DNA of 64,000 bases from an uncultured Bacilli bacterium (GCA_947626515.1 CANQSL010000001.1:35527-99526); one strand, 5' to 3'; positions 117-15,103 are shown, numbered from the stretch's first letter. The notes: generated by a model not told the origin, from the letters alone. Made by a program: numbers and translations.

Positions 117-2459
117 ATGCTAAATTTAATAGAAGATAATTCAATTCTTATCATACCAAATAATATAAAAGAAGAAGTAATAAAAAATATAAGAAATCAA
201 AATAAAAATTTAAATATAAAAATATTCTCTTTAGAAGAATTTATTAATAATTTAACATTTACTTACAATGAAGAAACTATTTTTAGATTAATGCAACAAG
301 AAAACGTTAATTATAATATTGCTTCTATATATTTAAATAATATAAAATATGTAGATAAACATTTTAATATCCCTAAATTAGATAAACTTTATAACATAAA
401 AAAAGGCATAGATGATTATTTAATAAAAGACACCTTATTTAAAAAGCTTATTAAAAACAAAAAAATAATTATATATGGATATGATTATATAACAAAATAT
501 CAAGAATACGTTTTAAATGACCTAGAAAATGTAAAAATAATAAAAAAAGTATATAATAATAATAAACATAAAGTATATAGAATAGATACTTTAGAAAATG
601 AAGTTATTTTTGTTGCAGAAAAAATATCACAACTAATAGATGAAGGGGTAAATATCAATAATATTTTTTTAACTAACATAAATGACTCTTATTATACAAC
701 TATAAAACGAATTTTTGATATGTACAATATTCCAGTAAACTTAAATGAAAAGAAGAGTATATATAAAACACACATTGGAACATACTTTATTAATAACCTA
801 TCAAATGATATAGATAAATTATTAAATGATATAAAAAATAAATTTGATTTGAATAATATAAAAAATTATGAGATATATAGTAAAATAATAAATGTATTAA
901 ATAATTTTTACTTTACTAATAATTATATAGAAATAAAAGAAAATATTATTAACGTAATGAAAAAAACTTATATAACCAACAATATATATAAGAATGCAGT
1001 AAATGAAATAGATATAAAAGATAATATGATAGATGATAGTTCTTATGTATTTTTATTAGGATTTAATTTAAATAAATTCCCAATAATTATAAAAGATGAA
1101 GATTATATAGAGGATAATATTAAACCAAGTATATTAGAAACTTCAACCTATATGAATAAATTAAATAATGAATTATATTATAAAATAATATCTAATATAA
1201 AAAATTTAACTATAACTTATAAAGAAAAACATTTAAATGAAGTTTTTTACCCAAGTTTATTAATAGATGAATATAATATGGAAGTCTTAGAAACTAATAT
1301 GGATTACAGTAACTATTCTAATGTTATAAATAAAATTAAATTAACAAAAATGTTAGACAATTTAATTAAATTTAATATAAAGGATGATAAACTTAATTTA
1401 TTATATTCTAATTATAATATAGATTATATGATTTATGATAATAAAGTAACTCCGTTAGATTCAAATTTATTAAATAAATATTTAAATAACAACTTAGTTT
1501 TAAGCTACTCAAGTATGGATAATTTTTATCATTGCTCTTTTAAATTTTTTATATCTAATATATTAAAATTAGATATATTTAATACAACTATACAAACATT
1601 TATAGGAAATCTCTATCACTTTGTCCTTAGCAAATGTTTTAACGAAGATTTTGAATTTTATGAAACAGTAAAATTCTTTTTAGAAAATAACGATCACCCT
1701 AATGATGCTAAATCCTTATATTTTTTAAATAAAGTAATAGAGGAATTAGAATTTGTTATAAAAGATATAAAATACCAACACTCTTTAGGTAATATAGATG
1801 AAATTTTATTTGAAAAAAAAGTTTGTGTGGAAATACCAGGAGTTATTAACACAACATTTAAAGGATTTATTGATAAAATAATAAGACACAATAATAATAT
1901 TATGATAATTGACTATAAAACTTATGACATAGATATTAAATTGAACTTAATAAATTACGGATTATCACTACAGTTACCAATATACTTATATCTTGCTAAA
2001 AATTTAAATAAAAATTATAAAGTAATAGGTTTTTATTTACAACAAATATTATTCAATAATTTTAATAAAGATAAAAATAAAACGGTTGATGAGCAAAAAA
2101 AAGATAAATTAAAATTAAAAGGATATAGTTTAGGTAATGAAATATTATTAAGTGAATTTGATAAAACTTTAAATAGTAGTGAACTAATACACGGAATGAA
2201 AATCACTAATAAAGGATTTGGAGCTTATTCCAATGTATTAACTGAAAAAGAAATTAACAAAATAATATCTATCACAGAAAATAAAATAAAAAGTTGTATA
2301 GAAGATATTAGCGCTGGCATAATAGAAATTAATCCTAAAATAATAGATGGAAAAGAAATAGGCTGTACATATTGTAAGTTTAAAGATATATGCTATAAAA
2401 CTAACAAAGATAATGTTTATTTAGATAAAATAGATAATTTAGATTTTTTAGAGGAATAG
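117..2459 (+). CDS. addB: AddB/RexB-type helicase-nuclease subunit B (short form)
   Basis: C-terminal PD-(D/E)XK-like motif (IDYKTYDID) plus four Cys (FYHC...GCTYCKFKDIC) typical of the AddB iron-sulfur nuclease domain. Immediately upstream of addA. Only 780 aa and no Walker A seen. Confidence 0.7.
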   Translation: MLNLIEDNSILIIPNNIKEEVIKNIRNQNKNLNIKIFSLEEFINNLTFTYNEETIFRLMQQENVNYNIASIYLNNIKYVDKHFNIPKLDKLYNIKKGIDDYLIKDTLFKKLIKNKKIIIYGYDYITKYQEYVLNDLENVKIIKKVYNNNKHKVYRIDTLENEVIFVAEKISQLIDEGVNINNIFLTNINDSYYTTIKRIFDMYNIPVNLNEKKSIYKTHIGTYFINNLSNDIDKLLNDIKNKFDLNNIKNYEIYSKIINVLNNFYFTNNYIEIKENIINVMKKTYITNNIYKNAVNEIDIKDNMIDDSSYVFLLGFNLNKFPIIIKDEDYIEDNIKPSILETSTYMNKLNNELYYKIISNIKNLTITYKEKHLNEVFYPSLLIDEYNMEVLETNMDYSNYSNVINKIKLTKMLDNLIKFNIKDDKLNLLYSNYNIDYMIYDNKVTPLDSNLLNKYLNNNLVLSYSSMDNFYHCSFKFFISNILKLDIFNTTIQTFIGNLYHFVLSKCFNEDFEFYETVKFFLENNDHPNDAKSLYFLNKVIEELEFVIKDIKYQHSLGNIDEILFEKKVCVEIPGVINTTFKGFIDKIIRHNNNIMIIDYKTYDIDIKLNLINYGLSLQLPIYLYLAKNLNKNYKVIGFYLQQILFNNFNKDKNKTVDEQKKDKLKLKGYSLGNEILLSEFDKTLNSSELIHGMKITNKGFGAYSNVLTEKEINKIISITENKIKSCIEDISAGIIEINPKIIDGKEIGCTYCKFKDICYKTNKDNVYLDKIDNLDFLEE

Positions 2460-2462
2460 TTT

Positions 2463-2819
2463 ATGAATAGACTTTTAAATATAGTTAGAATTATTGTTTC
2501 AATAATTCTATGTATAATACTAATAGTATTATTTCTTAATTTAGCAAATGTTACCACTCAATTATTTTTAACGCCATTTTTATTAGCAGCACTTGCAACA
2601 TTAGGATTATCAATATCAATATACAAAGAAAATGATTTGTTAATAGTCTTCTTTCAAAAATGTTATATAATCTCATTTCTTTTATATTGGTTTGGATTGT
2701 TAATCCTAGGGTGTTATACTGCTTTGAAAGACAAACAAATGGGAATGTTATTATTTTCAATACCATTTTGGATAGCAGGAATATTTATAATAAAGAAATA
2801 TTTTTTTGATAAAAAATAA
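2463..2819 (+). CDS. Small polytopic membrane protein (about 4 TM) inserted between addB and addA
   Basis: 118-aa hydrophobic ORF, same strand, tightly packed between the two nuclease-helicase genes. Confidence 0.4.
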   Translation: MNRLLNIVRIIVSIILCIILIVLFLNLANVTTQLFLTPFLLAALATLGLSISIYKENDLLIVFFQKCYIISFLLYWFGLLILGCYTALKDKQMGMLLFSIPFWIAGIFIIKKYFFDKK

Positions 2820-2834
2820 AAGGAGGTTATCAAT

Positions 2835-5800
2835 ATGCCTAAATGGACTGATGAACAAGAGTTAGCAATAAAAGAAAGTGGAAAAAATATATTAGTATCC
2901 GCTGGTGCTGGAAGCGGTAAAACTGCTGTATTAACAGAAAGAGTTATTAGAAAGTTAAAAAATGGCACAAGCATTAAAAATTTATTAATATTAACATTTA
3001 CTAACAATGCTGCATATGAGATGAAATCCAGGATTAAAGATGCTATAAAAAAAGCAATACCTACTAACCCAAAGATAAGACAAGAATTGGATTATATTGA
3101 CAATGCATACATAACAACATTTGATGCCTTTTCATTAAGTATAGTAAAAAAATACCACTATGTACTAAATATAGGTAAGGATATAGGCATAATAGATTCT
3201 AGTATAATTGACTTAAAAAAAGATGAAATATTAGAAAATATATTTTTAGAATTATATAAAACAAAAGATAGTAAATTTTTAAAATTAGTAGATTTAATAT
3301 GTACTAAAGATGATAAAGTTTTAAAAGAATATATATTAAAAATAAATAATAAATTAGATTTATTAATTGATAAAGAACGATATTTAAACAATTATATTAA
3401 TAATTATTATAATATAAACAATATAAATAATATTATTGATGATTATGTTAAATTATTAAAAGAAAAAATAAATATAATTAAAGAATATTTAGATAACTTA
3501 TCTAGTGAAGTAGATACTAAATATATAAATGAGTATACAGATACACTAACTCCATTATTTATATCGGATACATATGAGGACATAAAAACTAATTCAAATA
3601 TAACTTTAAAACAATTAAGAGGAGCAACTGAATTAGGAAAAACTTTAAAAAAAGAAATGAATGAGTTGATTAAAGAAGTAAATAACATGTGTTATTATTC
3701 TAAAGATTTGCTTACAAAAAAAATATTAAGTACTAAAGAATACGTAGAACCTATCATTACTATTATAGACAAATTAAATAAAAATATACAAAACTATAAA
3801 CATAGCATAAATAAATATGAATTTAATGATATAAGTATTATGGCAATAAATATTGTAGAAAATAATCCCTATATAAAAGAAGAATTAACTAATAGTTTTG
3901 AAGAAATCTGTGTTGATGAATATCAAGATACTTCTGATATTCAAGAATACTTTATTAATCTAATAAGTAACCACAATGTATATATGGTTGGAGATATAAA
4001 ACAGAGCATATATAGATTTAGAAATGCCAATCCAGTAATATTTAAAGAAAAATATGAAATATTTTCTAAAGAAATAGAAGGAATTAAAATAGATTTAAAT
4101 AAAAATTTTAGATCAAGAAGTGAAGTATTAGATAATATAAATTTAATATTTAATTTAATAATGGATAAATTTATTGGCGGAGCTGACTATAAACTAAGTC
4201 ATAATATGATATTTGGAAATGAAGCATATATAACTGATGGAAAAACTAATCAAAATTATAATTTAGAAATATTAAATTATGAATACGATAAATTATATAC
4301 AAAAGATGAAATAGAAGCTTTTATTATTGCAAAAGATATAAAAGACAAAATTGAAAATAACTATCAAATTTATGATAAAGACTCGAAAAGTTTAAGAAAT
4401 TTAGAATATAAAGATATAGTTATATTAATGGATAGAGGAACATCTTTTGATTTATATAAAAAAATATTAGAGTATTTTAATATACCTACTACATTACAAA
4501 AAGATGAAAATATAGTCAAAAATACGGTATTAGTGATTATTAAAAATTTAATTAGTCTAATAATAAAAATTAAAGAAAGCATATTTGATCAAGAATTTAA
4601 ATATTTATTTACATCTATAAGTAGAAGTTATATAGAAAGAATAAATGATAATGAACTATTAAATATATTTTATGAGAATAAATTTAAAGATACAGAACTA
4701 TACAAAAAATGTTTACTAATAAGTATTAATATAGATAATATGACTAATAAAGATTTACTAGATAGTATTGTAGAAAACTTTGATATATTTAACAAATTTA
4801 TAACTAATGGTGACATAGAAAATAAAAGAATTATATTAGATTATCTATATAGTATATTTAATGACTTAAACGAAATTGGTTATGATATATATGACTTAGA
4901 AAATTATTTTAATAACATTATAGAAAATGATAAACAATTAAAAATAAATATTACAGATAATACTAATAATACCGTTACAATAACAAATATTCACAAATCC
5001 AAAGGACTAGAATACAATATATGTTACTTTAGTGGATATGATAGAGAATTTAACAAAATGGAATTAAAAGATAAAATAATATATGATAATAAATATGGAA
5101 TTATTTTGCCTGTATATGATGATGGTTTAGAAGATTTAATAACAAAAGATATAATTAAAAATAACTATATTAAAGAAGATATATCTGAAAAAATACGTTT
5201 ATTTTATGTTGCATTAACAAGAGCTAGAGAAAAAATGATAATAGTTACTGATTTAAATAAAGAAACGTTTTCTAAAAAGGATTATAACGACGTTATAATA
5301 AATAGAATAAGACTAAAATATAAAAGTTTTAAAGATATATTATTATCTATAAAAAAAGAATTAACTCCATTCATAAAAAATATAGATATTAATTCTTTAA
5401 ACATAACGAATGAATATAAAAATATTAAATCCATTAATTTGGAGAATTTTATTGATAAAACTGATAAAGTAATTAATATTAAAAAAATTAATGTTGATAA
5501 AAGTCAAGTTATTAACAAACATTTTAGCAAAGTAACCAATAATATTATAAATAAAGAAACTAGAAATAATATGGACTTAGGATTATATATACATGAATTA
5601 TTTGAAACAATAGATTTTAATAATATAGATTTATCAGATATTGATAATAAATATAAAATATATGTTGAAAATTTTATAAATAGTTCATTATTAAAAAATA
5701 TCAGTAGTGCTAAAATTTATAAAGAATATGAATTTATATATGAAGAAGATAATTTAAAATATCATGGTATTATAGATTTAATGCTAGAATATAAAGATTA

Positions 5801-5960
5801 TATTAATATAATAGATTATAAATTAATGTATACAGAAAGCGAAGAATATATAAAACAATTAACAGGCTATAAAAATTATATTGAAAACTCATTTAATAAA
5901 AAAGTTAATTTATATTTATATAGTATAATGAATAACGAATTTAAAGAAATACAAGAATAA
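2835..5960 (+). CDS. addA: AddA/RexA ATP-dependent helicase-nuclease subunit A (UvrD family)
   Basis: Walker A SAGAGSGKTAVL, UvrD-like motifs (DEYQDTS, FRSR), C-terminal nuclease motif IIDLMLEYKDYINIIDYK. Strong RBS aaaggagg 7 nt before the ATG. Confidence 0.85.
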   Translation: MPKWTDEQELAIKESGKNILVSAGAGSGKTAVLTERVIRKLKNGTSIKNLLILTFTNNAAYEMKSRIKDAIKKAIPTNPKIRQELDYIDNAYITTFDAFSLSIVKKYHYVLNIGKDIGIIDSSIIDLKKDEILENIFLELYKTKDSKFLKLVDLICTKDDKVLKEYILKINNKLDLLIDKERYLNNYINNYYNINNINNIIDDYVKLLKEKINIIKEYLDNLSSEVDTKYINEYTDTLTPLFISDTYEDIKTNSNITLKQLRGATELGKTLKKEMNELIKEVNNMCYYSKDLLTKKILSTKEYVEPIITIIDKLNKNIQNYKHSINKYEFNDISIMAINIVENNPYIKEELTNSFEEICVDEYQDTSDIQEYFINLISNHNVYMVGDIKQSIYRFRNANPVIFKEKYEIFSKEIEGIKIDLNKNFRSRSEVLDNINLIFNLIMDKFIGGADYKLSHNMIFGNEAYITDGKTNQNYNLEILNYEYDKLYTKDEIEAFIIAKDIKDKIENNYQIYDKDSKSLRNLEYKDIVILMDRGTSFDLYKKILEYFNIPTTLQKDENIVKNTVLVIIKNLISLIIKIKESIFDQEFKYLFTSISRSYIERINDNELLNIFYENKFKDTELYKKCLLISINIDNMTNKDLLDSIVENFDIFNKFITNGDIENKRIILDYLYSIFNDLNEIGYDIYDLENYFNNIIENDKQLKINITDNTNNTVTITNIHKSKGLEYNICYFSGYDREFNKMELKDKIIYDNKYGIILPVYDDGLEDLITKDIIKNNYIKEDISEKIRLFYVALTRAREKMIIVTDLNKETFSKKDYNDVIINRIRLKYKSFKDILLSIKKELTPFIKNIDINSLNITNEYKNIKSINLENFIDKTDKVINIKKINVDKSQVINKHFSKVTNNIINKETRNNMDLGLYIHELFETIDFNNIDLSDIDNKYKIYVENFINSSLLKNISSAKIYKEYEFIYEEDNLKYHGIIDLMLEYKDYINIIDYKLMYTESEEYIKQLTGYKNYIENSFNKKVNLYLYSIMNNEFKEIQE

Positions 5961-6023
5961 GCACTCTTGTATTTTTATTTTTAAAAAATAAGGAAATGCA
6001 AAAAATAATATAATATAATTTAT

Positions 6024-7445
6024 ATGAATGATTTATTTTATATTGATGGATATTATTTAGATGAATATCAAATTAATTGTATTAAAAATATGAATAATTT
6101 ATTAATTATAGCTGGTGCTGGAAGCGGTAAAACTAGTACCATTTTAGGAAAAGTAAAATATTTAATAAGTATAGGATATAAAGAAAGTGATATATTATGT
6201 ATTAGTTTAACTAACGAAGCAACTAATGGTCTAAAAAATAAACTTTTAAAAATTAATTTGAATGTTACTTGTATGACATTTCATAAGTTAGGTTTATCTA
6301 TATTAAAAAAAATATATCCTAAAGTTAATATATGTAAAGAAGATTATTTAAAATATATAGTAGATGAATACTTTTTAAGTATAGTTAAATATTCTTACAG
6401 AAAATATTTATTATATATGGAATTTAAAACTTTTAAATACAATGATATTATTAATTCTAAAAAATTTTTGTTATATAAAAGAAATATTATGACATTTATT
6501 AATTTATTAAAAAATAAAGACCAAAGCTATGAAAAAATATTTGATTTATATAAAAGCAGCTATAATAAAATAATATATTTATTTATATTAGAAATATATA
6601 GAATATATGATATAGAGTGTTTTAGTACAAATTCCTTTGATTTCAATGATATGATAAACATCTCTGCAAAATTAGTGAAAGAAAAGAAAATTATATTAAA
6701 TTTTAAATACATCATTATTGATGAATTTCAAGATTCAAGTATTATTAAATTTAATTTAATAAATAACATTATTGAAAACAATCACGCAAAATTAATGTGC
6801 GTTGGTGATGATTATCAAAGTATATATAGATTTGCTGGAAGTGATATAAATTTATTTCTTAACTTTACTAAACACTTTAAAAATAGTGAAATAATGTACT
6901 TAAAAAACACTTATAGAAATTCTAAGGAGATTTTATATATAAGTACTAAATTTATATGTAAAAATAAATATCAAATCCCTAAAGATTTATTTAGCGAAAA
7001 AAGTAATAGTAAACCAATAAAACTATATTTTTCTAAAAATAAAACAAAAGCATTAAAATATATTTTAAAATTAATTGGTAATGACTATATGATTATAGGA
7101 AGAAATAATATAGATATAAAATATTATGTTGATAAATATACAGATATTAACAAAATAAAATATTTTACTGCACATAAATCAAAGGGCTTAGAAAGTGAAA
7201 ACATTGTACTTATTAATATAAGCGACGATATAATGGGCTTTCCTTCTAAAATTAAAAATACAAAAATAATAAATAAATTATTTGATAAAGAACTTTATAA
7301 ATATGATGAAGAAAGAAGATTATTTTACGTTGCTATTACTAGAACAAAAAATAATGTTTATATTATTTTAGATAAAAATAACATGTCTATATTTATAAAA
7401 GAGTTAATAAAAGACTTCAAAAAATATATTGAAGTCATTAATTAG
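6024..7445 (+). CDS. Short UvrD/PcrA-family DNA helicase
   Basis: Walker A IIAGAGSGKTSTI, DEFQDSS motif and C-terminal RRLFYVAITRTKNNVYI motif. Only 473 aa. Confidence 0.6.
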   Translation: MNDLFYIDGYYLDEYQINCIKNMNNLLIIAGAGSGKTSTILGKVKYLISIGYKESDILCISLTNEATNGLKNKLLKINLNVTCMTFHKLGLSILKKIYPKVNICKEDYLKYIVDEYFLSIVKYSYRKYLLYMEFKTFKYNDIINSKKFLLYKRNIMTFINLLKNKDQSYEKIFDLYKSSYNKIIYLFILEIYRIYDIECFSTNSFDFNDMINISAKLVKEKKIILNFKYIIIDEFQDSSIIKFNLINNIIENNHAKLMCVGDDYQSIYRFAGSDINLFLNFTKHFKNSEIMYLKNTYRNSKEILYISTKFICKNKYQIPKDLFSEKSNSKPIKLYFSKNKTKALKYILKLIGNDYMIIGRNNIDIKYYVDKYTDINKIKYFTAHKSKGLESENIVLINISDDIMGFPSKIKNTKIINKLFDKELYKYDEERRLFYVAITRTKNNVYIILDKNNMSIFIKELIKDFKKYIEVIN

Positions 7446-8520
7446 TACCTAATAATTTAGCATGAATGACCATTTTAATCTCATGCGTATAACAAGTTGA
7501 AAGTGTCAAAATTTTACTATTTTCGTCTACATCTGTATCAAATTGATACTCACTTCTAGATTTTATCATCTCTAAAAAATCTTTATAATCTTCATCTGAC
7601 TCAAAGTTTGTTGTTAAATAATCTGTAGTTGTTGGAATTTTATAAATACTAAATATTTCCCAATTGCTATTTTGATTCTCTGTTGATATTTTTATAATAA
7701 AGTCTTTTTGATTATACCAACTTTGTTGAAAAACACTTTTTAAAGATCCAAACATTGTTCCATTATATAAACCATGAGCATATATTATAGTATTTTGTGA
7801 TAAGTTATTTATATCGTTTCTATAGTCCATAAAAACCCATCCACCACCATTATATGACTTATCGAACGAATGACTTAAATAGTAATCATTATCATTTGCT
7901 TTTACAAATGGATAATTAACTTTTGTATTAGGCACCTGTAGCCATCCTACTGTTTCATTGTTAATTTCCTTTAATTTATCAAAATTTACATCTATATATG
8001 AATATTCTCTATATTTATAATAATCGCTACTTTCGTCAACCTGAGTAGACATAACTTTTTCATACTCTTCTGAAGATGCAACCACATTTACAACATCAGC
8101 TATATCATATATATTATCAATATTTTTATTAGTCTTTTTATAATTAACTAAATCAACTCCAATTTCATATGATAAAAAAATTATAAAAATTGTTGTTATA
8201 ACAGATAAGGCTCTTAAAAAATTTTTTTCTAATTGTATAAAAATTTTGTTTTTATTTTTCTTAAGTCTAGGTAGCTCAATTAAAATTGTATTTTCAAGAT
8301 TAGGAATTTCCATTTCATTTGATACTTGAGATTTTAACATTGGCATTTCTATTACTTGAGTTTCATCATTTTCAACAGTAAAAGATAATTTCTTTAATTT
8401 AGGGAGTTCTAATATAATTGTATGATCTAAATCTTGAATCTTTTCTTTATATGATTCAATTAAAATTTGTTCTTTTAACTTAGGAATTTCTATTGTTTTT
8501 TCTAAAGATTCTTTATTCAT
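7438..8520 (-). CDS. srtB: Class B sortase with N-terminal cytoplasmic repeat extension
   Basis: Catalytic TLSTCY motif, IIYAHG His motif and SrtB-like VGWLQVPNTKVNYPFV...YYLSHSF region. One TM segment precedes the catalytic domain. The ORF track starts at a TTG (8538); the ATG at 8520 has a GAAAGGAAA RBS. Overlaps the 3' end of the convergent helicase ORF. Confidence 0.7.
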   Translation of the reverse strand: MNKESLEKTIEIPKLKEQILIESYKEKIQDLDHTIILELPKLKKLSFTVENDETQVIEMPMLKSQVSNEMEIPNLENTILIELPRLKKNKNKIFIQLEKNFLRALSVITTIFIIFLSYEIGVDLVNYKKTNKNIDNIYDIADVVNVVASSEEYEKVMSTQVDESSDYYKYREYSYIDVNFDKLKEINNETVGWLQVPNTKVNYPFVKANDNDYYLSHSFDKSYNGGGWVFMDYRNDINNLSQNTIIYAHGLYNGTMFGSLKSVFQQSWYNQKDFIIKISTENQNSNWEIFSIYKIPTTTDYLTTNFESDEDYKDFLEMIKSRSEYQFDTDVDENSKILTLSTCYTHEIKMVIHAKLLGTN

Positions 8521-8572
8521 ACATATATTTCCTTTCAATTTTATTATACATTATTCTTTATTACTAAATTTT

Positions 8573-8606
8573 AAAAAAAGTAAATTTTTAGTAAAATTTA
8601 CTTTTT
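8573..8606 (-). terminator. 12-bp inverted repeat (AAAGTAAATTTT / AAAATTTACTTT) between the surface-protein gene and srtB; likely attenuator or partial terminator
   Basis: Perfect 12-bp stem with 4-nt loop, flanked by T/A runs. Confidence 0.45.
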
Positions 8607-8608
8607 AT

Positions 8609-10273
8609 TTACATATTATTAAGTTTGTTTTTTATTTTTTTAATTTTATTTATAACTACTAATAAAGTTATGCAAAGTGTTAATAATAAACCTATATTTA
8701 AATAAAGATTATCAAATGTTTGAGGATTTTTATCAATTGTATTATCTTTACCCTTGTTTGAATTATTATTTGTTGAACTAACTTTTTTTGTTGTAGGTTT
8801 TTTTGTTGTAGTTGCTGATGAATTTTTATTGGATAAATAAATTAGTTTGTTGCCATATTTTTTTGATGTATTTTCTATTATACCAAATTCACCTAATTTA
8901 TTTGTTGAAACAACAACATTTTTAGATCCATCATATTTAGTAGGATACACTGCTATATCATTATCTATAATTACAATAGCAGCACCCTTTAAATTTGTAT
9001 AATTACTTAAAGAAGTGTTCATATAACTTGTATCAAAATATACTTCATACGTATTATTATTAATATTTACTGGGCTTTCGTACTCATTTAATAATTGTAT
9101 TTTATAAATTCCATAATCATATACGTTTTCTTTTGATAATGCTTCTATTTTATTTTTGTCACTAGTATTTTTTATTTGATGATCAACATTTAAATAATAA
9201 TTTGACCTCAAAGCATTATTACTTTTTACAACTATTTCATTTCCTAAAAGAATATTTCCATATCTAAGTAAATATTTTTCACTAAAATTATAATTATAAT
9301 CAACATCAGATAATACCAAATCTCCATCTTCATTAAATCCCTTATATAATTTAGAGGTAAATGTATTATAGTAATCTTTTTTTGTAAAAGAATTGTATTC
9401 TACTTTTTGTTGCATTTTTGGAGATTTGCTAGATAAATCAATAATTTGTTTCAATGAAGACGCTATTTCAGTTTTATTTAAAGTATCTTTATTAAATAAA
9501 TTTGTAAATGATTCAAATATATTATCATTATTCCATACATCTTCCGTTACAGTACCATCTTTAAAATATTTATTTGGATAACTGGATTTTAAAACTTTAT
9601 ACCTCTCTGCTCCAGATGAAACATACTCATTTGCATATTGATCTGCTAAAGCTTTTGAGTCTCCATATGTCACTTCTCTTATTGTATTAGTATCACTATC
9701 TCTTGTTACAAGTATTCCACTTATATTTTTGCCATTTTTATTTTTATAAGATAATCTCATGTTATTATATACTAAACTATAATTATGAGAACCTAAGGTT
9801 GAATCCATATCGATAAATTTATAACCATAATTTGAATTTATTATATTTTTAACAATTAAAGCACCATTTTTATTAGCAGTAACATTTATCTTACTTTCAT
9901 CTAATTCTTTATACAAGTAATTTACGATTACATCTTTAGTAACCGTTATGTTTATATCTTTTTTCCCTATTTGAGCAATTAAATCATATGTTCCTTCCTC
10001 TATTTCTAGTCTATTTTCTTCTTCAACTAATAAAACGTCATTATTATGAGATTCTCCTGCCCCTTCAAATCCTGCATTAGAATACACAAAACAATATTTA
10101 GAAACATTTTCTTCTATTTCTTCATCTGTTTCTAATTTTCTTACAGTTTCTATAAATGGAGATTTACAAACTAAAAATTTAAATTCTTCTTTAGTTGCTG
10201 CTTTAACAGTAACACTAGAAAACAGTATTGAAATAGCACTCAATCCTATACAAAACTTATCTATTTTTCTCAT
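8609..10273 (-). CDS. Secreted cell-wall-anchored surface protein (sortase B substrate candidate)
   Basis: N-terminal signal peptide (MRKIDKFCIGLSAISILFSSVTVKA). C-terminal NPQTF motif followed by a hydrophobic segment and a KKIKNK tail, i.e. an SrtB-type (NPQTN-like) sorting signal. Thr/Lys-rich stalk before the motif. Directly upstream of srtB. Confidence 0.65.
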   Translation of the reverse strand: MRKIDKFCIGLSAISILFSSVTVKAATKEEFKFLVCKSPFIETVRKLETDEEIEENVSKYCFVYSNAGFEGAGESHNNDVLLVEEENRLEIEEGTYDLIAQIGKKDINITVTKDVIVNYLYKELDESKINVTANKNGALIVKNIINSNYGYKFIDMDSTLGSHNYSLVYNNMRLSYKNKNGKNISGILVTRDSDTNTIREVTYGDSKALADQYANEYVSSGAERYKVLKSSYPNKYFKDGTVTEDVWNNDNIFESFTNLFNKDTLNKTEIASSLKQIIDLSSKSPKMQQKVEYNSFTKKDYYNTFTSKLYKGFNEDGDLVLSDVDYNYNFSEKYLLRYGNILLGNEIVVKSNNALRSNYYLNVDHQIKNTSDKNKIEALSKENVYDYGIYKIQLLNEYESPVNINNNTYEVYFDTSYMNTSLSNYTNLKGAAIVIIDNDIAVYPTKYDGSKNVVVSTNKLGEFGIIENTSKKYGNKLIYLSNKNSSATTTKKPTTKKVSSTNNNSNKGKDNTIDKNPQTFDNLYLNIGLLLTLCITLLVVINKIKKIKNKLNNM

Positions 10274-10404
10274 ACTACAATTACCTACCTTAATTATAGT
10301 TAATCATACTAAAAAAAAAATTACAATAAATTTGTAATTTCAAAGAAAAAAATATGTAAACTTTTTAACAATTTAAAAAGACATAAAAATAGAATCAAAT
10401 ATTG

Positions 10405-11577
10405 TTAATTTAGTCTTAAATATTTTATATCATCCATTTTAAGCGTTTGCCTTTTATCTATTATTTCTAAACATTTATTAATCCTTTCAATTAAACTTGG
10501 TAGTGGCAATTCTCCCTTTATACATTTAAGCATTTCAAATATTCTTCTCTCAGCTAAATTTACTGATTCCATATTAAAGTCAGAATTATCAAAACTAATG
10601 ATTTTTTCACTTAAATTTTTTGTTATTTTTGCTTGTGCAGAATTAGCAAAATCAGAAACAATCATTTCTCCACTATTATTCATTTGTGAAGTCAACAACA
10701 AAGTATTTGCAGTTTCCAATAATATTGGATTACTAGTCAAATCAACTTTAACTCCTTTTCTTGAATAAAAGTTAGCACGAATACCTTTTTTTCTACTAAC
10801 ATCAAGTCGATATGTACCATTAACTTTACCATTTTTCTTATGAGTTTCTATTAAAATTGAACCAACTTCTAAATTATCGTTTGAATTCAAAGATGCTTCA
10901 AAAGATACTGAAGCATTGTTTTGACTATCACTTTTGTCATACTCCTTTACGATTTTTACTAAACGCATTCCTGTATTTAAATCTCGAATTATCTCAATAT
11001 CATTAAACTTTTCTATTAATATATTATTTTTAAATGATACTTTAAAATAATCGTTTTTATATCTTTGCTTTAAATCACTAGTCAATCGACTATTTATAAT
11101 TGATATATCAAAATCATTCGATAATATATCAAATGTTATATCATAAGTAATTCTTGTTGGATGTTGCATAGTTTGTTTTTGACCAATTTTGTCAGATTTA
11201 GAAAACTTAATAATACCATTATTATTAAAAGAAAAAGCTCTTGCAGATTTACGTGAATTCATATCAATCCAGTCAATTCGTCCAAACTCACATTCATATT
11301 TCTTACCACAATCATCTTCTAATATTACTCTTCTAAGTGGCAAGCCGTTTCTCTTTTCTGGATAATATACATTTTCCAACTTATATTGATCATAATATTT
11401 TTTTTCAATATCTTGAACAACATATCTTTCTGTATTATATAAAGGTATACTATATGCATCTAAGCATTGTTCCCACCAAGAAGCATTCCAAGCACCAACA
11501 AATTCTTCTACTTTTTGCATTTCATCTAATACTTTTTCAACAGCAATTAATTGAGTTTCTTCATCTAAATTTTCCAT
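10405..11577 (-). CDS. Hypothetical protein (about 390 aa), no recognisable domain
   Basis: Long ORF. The ATG (MENLDEE) is preceded by a GGGGGA RBS. The track start at 11595 is an upstream TTG. Confidence 0.4.
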   Translation of the reverse strand: MENLDEETQLIAVEKVLDEMQKVEEFVGAWNASWWEQCLDAYSIPLYNTERYVVQDIEKKYYDQYKLENVYYPEKRNGLPLRRVILEDDCGKKYECEFGRIDWIDMNSRKSARAFSFNNNGIIKFSKSDKIGQKQTMQHPTRITYDITFDILSNDFDISIINSRLTSDLKQRYKNDYFKVSFKNNILIEKFNDIEIIRDLNTGMRLVKIVKEYDKSDSQNNASVSFEASLNSNDNLEVGSILIETHKKNGKVNGTYRLDVSRKKGIRANFYSRKGVKVDLTSNPILLETANTLLLTSQMNNSGEMIVSDFANSAQAKITKNLSEKIISFDNSDFNMESVNLAERRIFEMLKCIKGELPLPSLIERINKCLEIIDKRQTLKMDDIKYLRLN

Positions 11578-11895
11578 ATATATTCCCCCTATCAAAAAAA
11601 TTTTTATATGCTTAAAATTATAATTTTTTTGTTGTTTTTTTCTCCTCTTCTATTAGAATTTCCTCTACTTTAGTTCCAACCAATATTTGAACTTTATTAC
11701 ATTTAGTACAAACTCTTTTAGCATACATTTGAGGACCAACAATTTTTACATCATCTGTAAATATAGTTTCTTCATATTCTGAAGGAATACCATAACTTCT
11801 AATCCAAAGACTATATTCATGATCGCATTTATTTATCCGACTTTTATTTCACGTCTAAAGTAATTATAAAGAAAGAAAAAAATAATGTCAATTTT

Positions 11896-12147
11896 TTACA
11901 TTTTTTTATTCTTTTTAACTAAATTTATAATTGTTAATACTGGATATATAAAAAAAGCTTCAGATAAAATTAAATAAGGTACAGCTATAAGTAGAAATAA
12001 TCCCCATTGATCCCTATGCACAATAGCATCTATAAATAAAATTAAAAATATTATTCCTAAAATTAAACTAACAGTAAATGCTGTTATTTTTATAATTTTC
12101 TTCATTAATATCCTCCTATAAAATAATCTTATCGTCTTCACAATCAT
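11896..12147 (-). CDS. Small 2-TM membrane protein
   Basis: 83-aa hydrophobic ORF on the same strand as its neighbours. Confidence 0.3.
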   Translation of the reverse strand: MIVKTIRLFYRRILMKKIIKITAFTVSLILGIIFLILFIDAIVHRDQWGLFLLIAVPYLILSEAFFIYPVLTIINLVKKNKKM

Positions 12148-12249
12148 AAATAGTAAAAATATGTAAGAAAAACAAATAAATCTAAAACTTTTTTATTAAT
12201 TAAAATATAGAAAATATTTCACTTTTATCTATTGTTGAAAAGTAAAATA

Positions 12250-12780
12250 TTATTTAATATAGTCTTTATTTTCTTTTGCAAGTTTAATTATATCTTCTAT
12301 AAAATCATTTTTTGAACTTGTATACATTTTTCTATTATCTGAATAAATAGATGCTAATTTTATTTTTAAATTTTTATAATCTTCACACGCTTTTTTATAT
12401 TTATTTAAGTAATCCCTAAATAATATAGTGTTTTTATATCTTTTACTATCTATTTCCATTACATGAATAAAGTGAGTTCTATTATCTATAGAACCCTTTC
12501 TAATTAAAATCTCATCATCTACAGAATCTTCTTTAATAGAATACGGTTCTTTTTCAAAGTTTTGTTTTACTTTATTAAAATCATTTAAACTGTTAACTGC
12601 AACTGCAATATCTATAATAGGTTTTGCACATAATCCAACTATACTAGTAGAACCAATATGTTCTATTTTTATTGCTACATTACCAAATAAATTTTCTAAA
12701 TTAATTTTTTCTTCTTCAAACATATTTTTCCAATTTGCATTATATTCTTCTAATTTAACAGTTCCAACTTTTAGTCCCAT
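12250..12780 (-). CDS. GrpB-family (nucleotidyltransferase-fold, UPF0157) protein
   Basis: HIGSTSI...KPIIDI motif characteristic of GrpB/DUF-type nucleotidyltransferase-like proteins. Confidence 0.6.
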   Translation of the reverse strand: MGLKVGTVKLEEYNANWKNMFEEEKINLENLFGNVAIKIEHIGSTSIVGLCAKPIIDIAVAVNSLNDFNKVKQNFEKEPYSIKEDSVDDEILIRKGSIDNRTHFIHVMEIDSKRYKNTILFRDYLNKYKKACEDYKNLKIKLASIYSDNRKMYTSSKNDFIEDIIKLAKENKDYIK

Positions 12781-12873
12781 ACAACCTCCTTTTTCAACCT
12801 TATTTATAAATTAATTTCTTAATTTATAACTTTCTTAAAAATATGTAGTATTATATCAAAATTATATCTATAT

Positions 12874-13713
12874 TTAAATATATTTAATATTATCTATAAT
12901 TGTTAAATTAGGCATTCTTTTAATAAGTGTTTTCTTTAACTCTGTTTTTTCTTTACCAAAATGAGCAAAAGGGTGATTACTTTCATCTACAAAACTTTCA
13001 CTAGTTAAGCCAAAATCTTCTAATAATAAATCATGAATTCGTCTTGTTATTTCTATTTCTCTTTTATCTTCATCACTTAATTCTTTTTTACTATCCAATT
13101 GTTTAAATCGTTCTTCGTATTCTTGTATTTTTCTTGCATGATCGAATTCCCAAGTTGTACCAGGCCCACCTACAATACCAGGACGAGATGGATACGGATT
13201 TCGTTGATCATATAATCTCTCTAATATTCTCATTACTCTATCTAATTCGGCTTCTCTCAATTCTTTACTTTCAAATGTTTGAAATAATGAAACATCCCCA
13301 ATATTCAATGTCTTAAAACCACTTGGAACTTTAGGAGTATTCCAACCACTAGAATGAATTTCTTTGTAATCAAAATCAAATAATTCTACGCTTCTATCAC
13401 TTAATTCAGTTGATACACTCAACCTTTCCAATACATCATTATTTCCAGATAAAATGAATTTATCATTTTGTTGATTAAATAAGTTTTGAACTCTATTGTA
13501 GATGTTATAAATTGCTATTTTTTTATATACTTCTAATTCAGCAAGTGCCTTTCTATCAGAATCACTAATATACTCTCTTATAACAGAAAATTCTAATTCT
13601 ATTAAAGAATTCAAATAATTTAGCATAGGTTCTGTAAGTATTCCTCTATATTCTTTTAAAGATTCTAATAATTCTTCTTTTGTTTTTATTCTATTTGTAG
13701 TTATAAATTCCAT
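12874..13713 (-). CDS. Hypothetical protein (about 279 aa) with locally elevated GC
   Basis: ORF with GGGAGGA RBS before the ATG (MEFITT). Segments such as ccaggcccacctacaataccaggacgagatgg are far more GC-rich than the window average. Confidence 0.4.
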   Translation of the reverse strand: MEFITTNRIKTKEELLESLKEYRGILTEPMLNYLNSLIELEFSVIREYISDSDRKALAELEVYKKIAIYNIYNRVQNLFNQQNDKFILSGNNDVLERLSVSTELSDRSVELFDFDYKEIHSSGWNTPKVPSGFKTLNIGDVSLFQTFESKELREAELDRVMRILERLYDQRNPYPSRPGIVGGPGTTWEFDHARKIQEYEERFKQLDSKKELSDEDKREIEITRRIHDLLLEDFGLTSESFVDESNHPFAHFGKEKTELKKTLIKRMPNLTIIDNIKYI

Positions 13714-13901
13714 CAATTATCCTCCCGATTACTATATATTATAGCATTCATATTTTTTGATGTAAATTAAAAAAGTTTTAATAATATTGCAAAAATAAAA
13801 AGAAAAAAGGAAGAGCATTAATCTCTCCCAAAATATAGATAATCAAACTAAAAGTTTGTTTAATACCACTATGGTGCCCTAAAGGAAGAAGTACAACAAC
13901 T

Positions 13902-14585
13902 TTAATGATTACAAACATCTATAAAATATTTAAATATATTATTCATATTTTCATCAATTTTATATAAACTTTCTGGATGAAATCTTACACCCATATAGAA
14001 TTTTTTGCATTTGGATTCCACTACTTCAGCATAGCCGTCTTCACAAGTTGCTACTTTTTCTAATAAGGGATAACTATGAACTGCTTTTTTATGCCTCGAA
14101 TTTACTTTTATTTCTTTATGCTTAATAATATTATAAAATTTTGAAGATGGATTTATATATATATTATGGACATATTTTTCTGTTATTTGATTATGTTTTT
14201 TAGGATTAGAAATTTTATATGTCGTACCACCCAATGCTCTAACTATGACGTTTTGCCCACAACAAATACCTAAAGTTGGAATATCATGATCATAACAATA
14301 TTTTGCTACTATCATCTCGTAGTTATCACATGCTCCTCCACCTTGAAATATAATTCCATCACATAGATTAATTTGTGTGATTAATGAATCATATTCTTCT
14401 TGTGATAGATTATTAACCCAATTATCTTCTACATCTAACTTTTCATCTCTTGGTAACAAGATGCCAATCGCTATTGCTCCATTATCGAATACAGATTGCT
14501 TGATTTCATCCCTTATGTACATGTCAGGCCTTATAGAATCTTTATTATAGTGTTTTGAAACTATACCTATTATAACTTTTTTCAT
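13902..14585 (-). CDS. Class I glutamine amidotransferase-like / peptidase C26 (gamma-glutamyl hydrolase-like) protein
   Basis: Catalytic Cys context GICCGQNV and His context GVRFHPE typical of C26/GATase1. Confidence 0.6.
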   Translation of the reverse strand: MKKVIIGIVSKHYNKDSIRPDMYIRDEIKQSVFDNGAIAIGILLPRDEKLDVEDNWVNNLSQEEYDSLITQINLCDGIIFQGGGACDNYEMIVAKYCYDHDIPTLGICCGQNVIVRALGGTTYKISNPKKHNQITEKYVHNIYINPSSKFYNIIKHKEIKVNSRHKKAVHSYPLLEKVATCEDGYAEVVESKCKKFYMGVRFHPESLYKIDENMNNIFKYFIDVCNH

Positions 14586-14685
14586 TTATTGTACCCACTT
14601 TCTTTGTATTATTAAATATTATCGCATATTGTTTTTGTCAATATACAAGTGTGTTTCCTAGTGTGTTTCAAATTTAAAGAGTATT

Positions 14686-14708
14686 AAAAAAGTCCTATTT
14701 TAAGGACG
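14686..14708 (-). terminator. Putative rho-independent terminator downstream of ssrA
   Basis: On the - strand GTCCT-taaaat-AGGAC followed by TTTTTT, 13 nt after the tmRNA CCA end. Confidence 0.4.
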
Positions 14709-14720
14709 TTAATTTTTAAA

Positions 14721-15076
14721 TGGTGGAGCCGAGCAGAATTGAACTGCTGTCCAAAATACTTTCTTACTTAGCGTCTACAAGTTTAGTTAGAGCTATATAT
14801 TCATTAATAAAAAAGAGTCTAACATCTATTTATTAATATAGTTTAATAAAATTCAATAATTATTCTAAACAAAATAATTATTATATCTTATATATATGAA
14901 CCTTAATTTAATCTATAAGCAAAAAAAATTAAAGTGCGCCATTGCCAAATTAGGCAAATGCTAAAGCGCTATTTGTATTATAATTTTTGTCAGTTAATTT
15001 TAAACTGTTGCCACTTAGGATTGGCCACCACTTGCAACTAAATAGAAATATATTCTGTCGAAACCATTACGACCCC
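14721..15076 (-). ncRNA. ssrA: tmRNA (SsrA), about 356 nt
   Basis: On the - strand the 5' end GGGGUCGUAAUGGUUUCGACAG closely matches the Bacillus-type tmRNA start GGGGACGUUACGGAUUCGACAG. 5' GGGGUCG pairs with the 3' acceptor CGGCUCCACCA. The 3' end GGACAGCAGUUCAAUUCUGCUCGGCUCCACCA has a T-arm (AGCAG/UUCAAUU/CUGCU) and ends in CCA. An internal reading frame ends ...NSALAFA-UAA (tag-peptide-like). Confidence 0.8.
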
Positions 15077-15103
15077 GTGTCAACAAATATAACACAAAAT
15101 TAA

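Follow-up and report, generated by a model that had tools for sequence, protein, structure and literature searches.

The 3′ end of ssrA, the single transfer-messenger RNA (tmRNA) gene in a 64,000-nucleotide stretch of DNA from an uncultured Bacilli bacterium (GCA_947626515.1 CANQSL010000001.1:35527-99526; this whole stretch is referred to as the window, and positions are counted from its first letter), appears to be a landing site for small integrative elements of uncultured low-GC gut Bacilli. We give this reading as a whole a probability of roughly 0.7; under it, the end of ssrA is an active point of insertion, and the first gene of the adjacent block (10405-14720), which codes for a C26/GATase1-type hydrolase, is carried by a non-autonomous cassette. 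The cassette and its putative attachment point comprise the following features.

14721-15076, minus strand: ssrA, with tag DKNYNTNSALAFA, the one tmRNA gene found by ARAGORN.
3′ end of ssrA, minus strand: ...GGCTCCACCA, the putative attachment point, attL side.
13872-14720, minus strand: single-gene cassette of 849 bp, in the order terminator, promoter-like region, C26/GATase1 gene, 32-nt end.
14692-14707, minus strand: intrinsic terminator after ssrA (terminator scan).
13902-14585, minus strand: C26/GATase1-type hydrolase of 227 residues (Pfam), the cargo of the cassette.
13872-13903, minus strand: class A end of 32 nt, AAAGTTGTTGTACTTCTTCCTTTAGGGCACCA, ending in GCACCA, attR side.

The cassette is bounded on the left by the CCA end of ssrA and on the right by the 32-nt site, which is similar to a tRNA 3′ end. 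It encodes the C26/GATase1 protein only, and genes for recombination and transfer are absent. The 227-residue protein matches PF07722 (E 2.6e-23, 83.4 bits against a cut-off of 20.5) and PF00117 (E 3e-15, 56.8 bits), and its translation contains the nucleophile-elbow sequence GICCGQN and an RFHPE motif, giving the Cys-His-Glu triad; it reaches no NCBIfam equivalog.

Comparison with a relative assembled from another sample (L006) shows the same position occupied by a different gene. L006 and the window are 98-99% identical in nucleotide sequence across ~17 kb and differ at two places only, the first of which is the cassette: window 13878-14718, with the GATase gene, corresponds to 1003 bp with an Asp/Glu racemase gene in L006. 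On the left, homology to L006 runs through ssrA and breaks off 2 nt beyond the CCA of the tmRNA, and the right breakpoint is directly ahead of GCACCATAGTGG; the sequence CACCAT is present at both junctions of this unit, in the window and in L006 alike. The original prediction, which was made from the sequence of the window alone, had proposed the ssrA 3′ end as an insertion site, and the swap of cassettes at these junctions supports an active one. The same prediction reported no duplicated ssrA 3′ segment, which is correct for the terminal 24-mer (no second copy in the window at up to 3 mismatches, and a repeat search was also empty) but overlooks the CACCAT core that recurs at the other end of the cassette. 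What flanked ssrA originally is probably the sequence just past GCACCA (TAGTGGTATT... and a terminator). A terminator-like hairpin, GGGAGAGATTAATGCTCTTCC with a T-run (13809-13829, minus strand; terminator scan), sits there between the hydrolase gene and the next gene, in sequence shared with L006, and probably represents the terminator that ssrA had before the cassette displaced it.

The cassette is also found behind a different RNA gene. Window 13872-14660 has 87% nucleotide identity to positions 7926-8714 of L079, a different metagenome-assembled genome (MAG) with unrelated flanks, where 170 bp separate tRNA-Lys(ctt) from the GATase cassette and the cassette ends in GAACCA, and the homology stops exactly at G[C/A]ACCA. 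In the window, 13872-13903 holds the sole G.ACCA site on the minus strand within 7000-15100. Among the loci fetched for comparison the class A end is found 19 times, beside 13 unrelated cargo families, and its exact 22-mer is present in 13 metagenome contigs and in 0 viral contigs. The end resembles a degenerate 3′ half of tRNA-Leu(gag) that has lost most of the T-arm and finishes with discriminator and CCA. We also considered a tRNA-like minihelix at the class A end and rejected it, as the sequence folds no better than shuffled versions of itself (z = 0.71); the idea of a tRNA-like hairpin holds for some other end classes only.

The difference from L006 could alternatively reflect chance homologous recombination or illegitimate insertions and deletions among ordinary lineage-specific genes. 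The composition of the block is ordinary, the block is 97-99% conserved in L006, and the second difference between the two genomes has no att-like features, all of which would fit. However, the first difference breaks at a CCA end on one side and, on the other, at a 32-nt motif that 13 unrelated cargo families have in common, and the GATase cassette recurs behind another tRNA. Furthermore, homologs of the 279-residue protein encoded next to the cassette are placed one-sidedly at tRNA 3′ flanks: of 64 loci, 22 have a tRNA or tmRNA gene on the same strand within 5 kb upstream and 1 has one downstream (some of these loci being related pairs), and within 500 bp the counts are 9 upstream and 0 downstream. 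Chance is thus quite unlikely as the explanation.

Further classes of cassette end were recognized in the compared loci, all of which finish in GCACCA or CCACCA.

Class B: AAAGTTGTAGATAAC...GCACCA.
Class C: a hairpin, then CGCACCA.
Class D: TTTGYTGTGATGGTTTCGGACTAT...GCACCA.

Directly 3′ of several RNA genes, units with such ends form head-to-tail stacks, as follows.

tRNA-Leu(caa): L026, L003, L082, L093.
tRNA-Leu(gag): L017.
tRNA-Thr(cgt): L022, L028, L008.
tRNA-Lys: L079.
tmRNA: the window, L006, L060, L086, L092, L094.

Most of the array units are 0.7-1.2 kb long and have one gene each, with cargo that includes a histidine phosphatase, a nitroreductase, a GNAT acetyltransferase, an HD-domain protein, a radical-SAM protein, an R2K ATP-grasp protein, a HAD hydrolase, Abi_2 and many unknowns. 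When related loci are compared pairwise, the breakpoints fall at the tRNA end or at GCACCA. Loci L003 and L014 have only the unit with the 279-family gene in common, up to GCACCA; one unit adjoins tRNA-Thr in L022 and follows the end of another unit in L027; and L048 and L051, like L020 and L021, differ by an insert right after the tRNA. Inside the L003 array, at 11170-11201, there is a partial tRNA 3′ half (T-arm, acceptor and CCA) followed by the usual terminator-like flank.

Two autonomous relatives of these units carry their own recombinases. In L008 an integrative mobilizable element (IME) of 8.4 kb (5878-14262) extends from the GCACCA of tRNA-Thr(cgt) to a class D GCACCA, and encodes a large serine recombinase, a Mob_Pre relaxase, a relative of the 390-residue protein of the window, SLATT_4, a cyclase of the type found with SMODS domains and cyclic-oligonucleotide-based antiphage signalling systems (CBASS), and Abi_2. 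The recombinase has 617 residues with Resolvase and Recombinase domains, and its top NCBIfam scores are to XisF and CcrB. The right end of this element is the one that closes a unit with a 279-family gene and Abi_2 in L022 and L027, and its left arm (TAGGGAAATCCGCTCGAAC...) also opens a 390-family unit in the tmRNA array of L094. In L089, a Recombinase-domain protein, truncated at its N-terminus by the end of the contig, lies beside cassettes together with Mob_Pre.

Arrays of ~1-kb single-gene units with conserved ends, stacked head to tail and in some cases ending in a hairpin followed by GCACCA, are also what would be expected of integrons or of clusters of attC sites lacking integron integrases (CALIN), in which an IntI-type tyrosine recombinase acts on folded attC sites. 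We consider this extremely improbable, given that the window has no IntI or other tyrosine recombinase, the ends lack the attC R''/R' consensus (the class A end has no GTTRRRY/RYYYAAC pair), class A folds no better than shuffled sequence (z = 0.71, as above), the cassettes carry promoter-like and terminator sequences of their own, and the recombinases of the autonomous relatives are of the serine type.

A 130-nt repeat starts right after many of the GCACCA or CCA ends, including the ssrA end in L006, and copies are present at the following positions.

L006: 8827-8957.
L003: 9781-9911 and 19528-19658.
L013: 97-229.
L026: 3598-3730 and 5339-5471.
L081: 2473-2629.

The 3′ half of the repeat (a hairpin, CCTAGGGGGTTA and ATTTTGTCA) is located just upstream of the Mob_Pre genes in L008 and L081, and upstream of Mob_Pre on the Terrisporobacter plasmid pTPELB2 (L098, 170-222). 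The repeat matches no Rfam family. The position directly upstream of a Mob_Pre gene is the usual place of the MobV origin of transfer (oriT), and we regard the repeat as a candidate MobV-type oriT.

We propose that the units would move as circles, with site-specific strand exchange within CACCA, and that each newcomer would push older units farther from the tRNA. The recombinase would act in trans and is most likely the XisF/CcrB-like large serine recombinase of the autonomous members, which carry it together with a Mob_Pre (MobV) relaxase and an oriT-like repeat; the window cassette would then be a non-autonomous derivative comparable to a cis-mobilizable element (CIME). The empty site is expected to read ...GGCTCCACCA/TAGTGGTATTAAAC, i.e. 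the ssrA CCA joined to TAGTGGTATT, and the circular junction ...CTTTAGGGCACCA/TTTAAAAATTAACG, where the slash marks the joint.

Several observations weigh against this interpretation. The common core is only 5-6 nt, and we infer recombination from sequence comparisons, neither the circular form nor the empty site having been observed. A tblastn search of the whole 64-kb window with tyrosine integrase, large serine recombinase and Mob_Pre sequences returned nothing, so that action in trans is assumed, and there is no copy of the oriT-like repeat in the window; the empty search, like the Pfam and NCBIfam searches of the block proteins, agrees with the original prediction that no integrase is present. 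We found no class A end on an autonomous element, and the ends and arms common to L008 and the cassettes belong to another end class. The choice of a large serine recombinase rests on two autonomous elements, and in L003 a tyrosine integrase, an alternative candidate, is situated beside the tRNA-Leu that heads the array. Many of the compared loci are MAG contigs and some are phylogenetically related pairs, with open reading frames (ORFs) called by a simple script. Lastly, no att-like site bounds any of the 279-residue, GrpB or 390-residue genes in the window, and a candidate decayed cassette end after the 279-residue gene (AAAGTTATAAATTAAG...) was dropped when a multiple alignment of the 3′ flanks gave no support for it.

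Beyond the cassette, the block continues on the same strand with the following features.

12874-13713, minus strand: 279-residue protein of no family, holding a GC-rich stretch.
12250-12780, minus strand: GrpB-family protein of 176 residues (PF04229, E 1.8e-43).
Stop at 11896, minus strand: small ORF with two transmembrane (TM) segments, 83 residues from 12147 or 69 residues from 12105.
11917-12243, minus strand: the second difference from L006, 327 bp with the small TM ORF, in place of which L006 has 26 bp within a terminator hairpin.
11618-11848, minus strand: apparent gene relic, with 76 open codons and no start codon (translation).
10405-11577, minus strand: 390-residue protein of no family.

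This gene content and these coordinates agree with those given in the original prediction (ARAGORN, ORF calls, Pfam and NCBIfam), and the view that the block is made of accessory genes is supported as well. The GrpB protein matches PF04229 at 148.9 bits, above the cut-off, over profile positions 2-158 of 159, and the gene is also present in L006. For the small TM ORF, a singleton protein cluster, the 69-residue version is more likely than that of 83 residues, with an AGGAGG site ahead of its start at 12105, and is the one annotated in the source record. The frame of the relic contains ...IRSYGIPSEYEETIFTDDVKIVGPQMYAKRVCTKCNKV...; its region 11700-11799 has 79% nucleotide identity to L006, compared with 97-100% in the flanks, and the L006 counterpart of 11618-11848 has stop codons. 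With the exception of the TM ORF segment, the 279-residue, GrpB, relic and 390-residue genes are common to the window and to L006/L007, which represent one near-identical relative.

The block as a whole (10405-14720) could be a single old island or prophage remnant that has since lost a tyrosine integrase and a distal repeat. It lies directly 3′ of ssrA, has accessory and unknown genes, a gene relic and a strain-specific insertion or deletion, and homologs of the 279-residue protein adjoin tRNAs and integrases in other genomes. This is unlikely, however, since the bounded and polymorphic part is limited to the first 849 bp, no ssrA repeat of useful length is found, every gene has codon usage and GC content at third codon positions (GC3) within |z|<2, the block genes are never found together in 64 other loci, and the unknown proteins have no PHROG or viral-contig links. 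Judged by the comparison with L006 and the MAG loci, only the first unit appears demonstrably bounded and exchangeable. The earlier idea of one insertion thus stands as to the ssrA end being the insertion site, and fails as to the whole block being one decayed island. Under the accretion reading, the stretch from the 279-residue gene through GrpB, the TM ORF and the relic to the 390-residue gene is best read as an older section whose boundaries have been lost, because the 279- and 390-residue families are recurrent cargo of such elements elsewhere. As these genes are common to L006/L007 and have no recognizable boundaries, and the decayed end failed, they are best called fixed cargo-type genes; an old, decayed insertion is plausible for them by analogy only.

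The 279- and 390-residue proteins have no match in Pfam, NCBIfam, PHROGs or PADLOC, and profile searches of PDB sequences with both families gave nothing useful. AlphaFold models of both are fairly confident, with predicted local distance difference test (pLDDT) values of 83.8 (279 residues) and 78.6 (390 residues), and Foldseek comparison of both with the PDB found no match at E<=0.001 (TM-score <0.22). These profile and structure searches confirm the earlier remark that neither protein has a recognizable motif. Neither family has relatives among viral contigs, which also lack the class A motif.

The 279-residue family comprises 393 clusters at 50% identity, all single-domain and about 250-300 residues long, and a full-library profile search found no fusion to a known domain. 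Nearly every named assembly with a member is a MAG from gut or rumen, under the label Bacilli, Tenericutes or Clostridium sp. CAG. The gene makes up a unit of its own in several species, consisting of repeat, gene and class B end; repeats of tRNA 3′ ends downstream of the homologs were searched for at >=12 nt and none is meaningful. Two related ruminant-ileum MAGs have a variable slot right after the 279-family gene (L039 10856-13655 and L040 10862-11738), with a 768-residue gene in one and a 294-residue gene in the other, closed by CGAACTA...TAGTTCG terminator hairpins and having no GCACCA site. A 4799-residue protein (P0323) contains 29 stretches that match profile positions 141-194 of the family, which probably reflects repetitive coiled coil rather than homology.

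The 390-residue family is strongly conserved, with a mean column identity of 66%, and its predicted fold combines a large antiparallel beta-sheet with a helix at the N-terminus and a bundle of helices at the C-terminus. Homologs are cargo of the L008 element at tRNA-Thr and of the tmRNA-linked array in L094, and one member of 658 residues (P0226) has an extra N-terminal region of 268 residues with no Pfam match. The sole functional hint for both families is that they occur as cargo on mobilizable elements, frequently adjacent to abortive-infection genes.

The original prediction drew attention to a GC-rich stretch within the 279-residue ORF and suggested foreign origin or strong constraint. 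The high local GC is real, with 44% at 13140-13220 compared with 23.9% in the whole window. This segment encodes residues 165-192, ERLYDQRNPYPSRPGIVGGPGTTWEFDH, a Pro/Gly/Arg loop (NPYPSRPG..GGPG..W..H) that is conserved throughout the family. GC at the first, second and third codon positions is 0.61/0.54/0.18 in the stretch and 0.39/0.30/0.12 in the entire ORF; the excess is therefore at positions 1 and 2, where it is imposed by Pro, Gly and Arg codons, and GC3 is low, so the stretch is not a trace of foreign DNA. Nor does the composition of the block set it apart: for every gene, GC3 and synonymous-codon likelihood are within |z|<2 relative to 51 window ORFs, and the most deviant, the GATase gene, has a GC3 z of +1.7, which is not significant.

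The original prediction also raised the possibility of a small operon and likened the arrangement to defence systems, without asserting one. In addition to the terminator-like hairpin at 13809-13829, the following promoters were predicted.

13738-13766, minus strand: promoter of the 279-residue gene, 11/12 with an extended -10 (promoter scan).
11863-11891, minus strand: perfect 12/12 sigma-70 consensus promoter, TTGACA-17-TATAAT (promoter scan).

The second of these is ~285 nt upstream of the 390-residue gene and would give a long leader holding the relic. PADLOC 2.0 has zero matches among the five block proteins. In 64 loci with a 279-family homolog, GrpB, the TM ORF, the 390-residue family, the 554-residue protein and the sortase described below are never nearby by tblastn, except in L006/L007, and the 390-family homologs of four contexts (L008, L011, L094 and L096) never adjoin GrpB or the 279-residue family. 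Because of the terminator, the separate promoters, the absence of PADLOC matches and the absence of co-occurrence in the 64 loci, the block does not form an operon or a known defence system, and the 279-residue, GrpB, TM ORF and 390-residue genes are predicted to be transcribed separately. A new defence system or operon made up of these four proteins would account for their common strand, and a nucleotidyltransferase fold (GrpB) with a small TM protein and unknowns recalls some defence layouts; moreover, homologs of the 279- and 390-residue proteins adjoin Abi_2 and SLATT/CBASS-cyclase genes in other loci. Yet the TM ORF is missing from L006 and the 279- and 390-residue genes have strong promoters of their own, and with the idea largely refuted by the absent co-occurrence we regard it as very improbable.

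The surroundings of the block are as follows.

7438-10273, minus strand: class B sortase (TIGR03064, E 1.3e-53) and a secreted substrate of 554 residues.
117-7445, plus strand: AddB, AddA and a third UvrD-type helicase, which converge on the sortase gene.

The substrate has an NPQTF sorting signal at residue 516, followed by a TM helix and a basic tail. The two genes are an ordinary sortase-substrate pair that closes the same-strand run, lies outside the mobile unit and is kept in L006. The third helicase has 473 residues and its top NCBIfam score is to helicase IV; PADLOC matches of the AddB, AddA and UvrD-type proteins to GajB and DRT helicases reflect generic UvrD-helicase similarity. Upstream of ssrA are genes for SpoVG, YabP, YabQ, DivIC and a YabG-type peptidase, and farther along on the same strand dnaA-dnaN-recF-gyrBA; the source of the window is a Firmicute.

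That mobilizable elements accrete in tandem at tRNA and tmRNA genes is already known. In the literature searched, what is not described is single-gene stacks with one 32-nt tRNA-end-like site and at least 13 unrelated cargos, the use of one such site at several tRNA and tmRNA targets, or the occurrence of these in a gut lineage that is uncultured and very low in GC. If the proposed mechanism is true, the flexible gene pool of these organisms could easily be catalogued by means of the 32-nt motif, which would also aid the search for the recombinase and help to explain strain differences beside ssrA. The 279-residue family, with its 393 clusters, and the 390-residue family are labelled as mobile cargo, which narrows where to seek their function.

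Among the closest known systems are the Dehalococcoides ssrA islands, in which tandem units lie directly downstream of the single tmRNA gene (McMurdie et al. 2011, PMC3146451). Those islands use a CcrB-type large serine recombinase, some units lack an integration module and are read as cis-mobilizable, and a fixed, syntenic, cargo-like region is present past the last ssrA repeat (PMC3146451). The loci described here are alike in their tandem units after tmRNA, in the XisF/CcrB-like recombinase of L008 and in the fixed region beyond. They differ in that the Dehalococcoides islands are several to tens of kb, with a 20-bp ssrA repeat and insertion in the T-loop region (PMC3146451), whereas here most units consist of a single gene and measure 0.7-1.2 kb, the CACCA core is at the extreme 3′ end, tRNA-Leu, tRNA-Thr, tRNA-Lys and tmRNA share the same ends, and the mobilization gene is a Mob_Pre relaxase.

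L008 and L089 are similar to the clostridial IMEs Tn4451 and Tn4453 in pairing a large serine recombinase with MobV/Mob_Pre (PMC5704250), and the autonomous members share with them an oriT-like site upstream of the relaxase. Tn4451 recombines between 2-bp identical att sequences and has low integration specificity (review PMC5704250), unlike the present elements, whose ends mimic tRNA 3′ ends and lie at tRNA or tmRNA CCA, and of which most copies carry one cargo gene. Streptococcal CIMEs, which have no recombination or transfer genes, keep their att sites and stand in tandem with arrivals at tRNA 3′ ends (PMC5704250, PMC5357655), are likewise gene-stripped units in tandem. They are described as decayed multi-gene elements (PMC5704250, PMC5357655), in contrast to the one 32-nt end on at least 13 unrelated single genes found here, which looks like a standing cassette pool and not like separate events of decay. 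Prochlorococcus tycheposons also occupy several tRNA genes and the tmRNA gene with cargo elements, newer ones pushing older ones inward and leaving partial tRNAs (bioRxiv 10.1101/2020.12.28.424599), but these marine cyanobacterial elements are larger and are equipped with tyrosine recombinases and replication modules (bioRxiv 10.1101/2020.12.28.424599).

A more far-reaching possibility, which we put forward tentatively and hold to be doubtful, is that these arrays are a Gram-positive counterpart of integrons, i.e. a pool of ~1-kb single-gene cassettes with ends that mimic the tRNA acceptor and CCA, moved in trans by a large serine recombinase into several tRNA and tmRNA CCA ends, and in some cases equipped with a MobV-type oriT for cell-to-cell transfer. 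Since the 279-residue family is so often first after the tRNA or the oriT-like repeat, it could be an accessory factor in such a system instead of passive cargo. As with integron cassettes, the units are small and mostly of a single gene, with a conserved recombination end at one attachment point; they differ in the absence of IntI and of an attC consensus or obligatory fold, in having promoters of their own, and in an attachment point that is the 3′ end of a tRNA or tmRNA gene.

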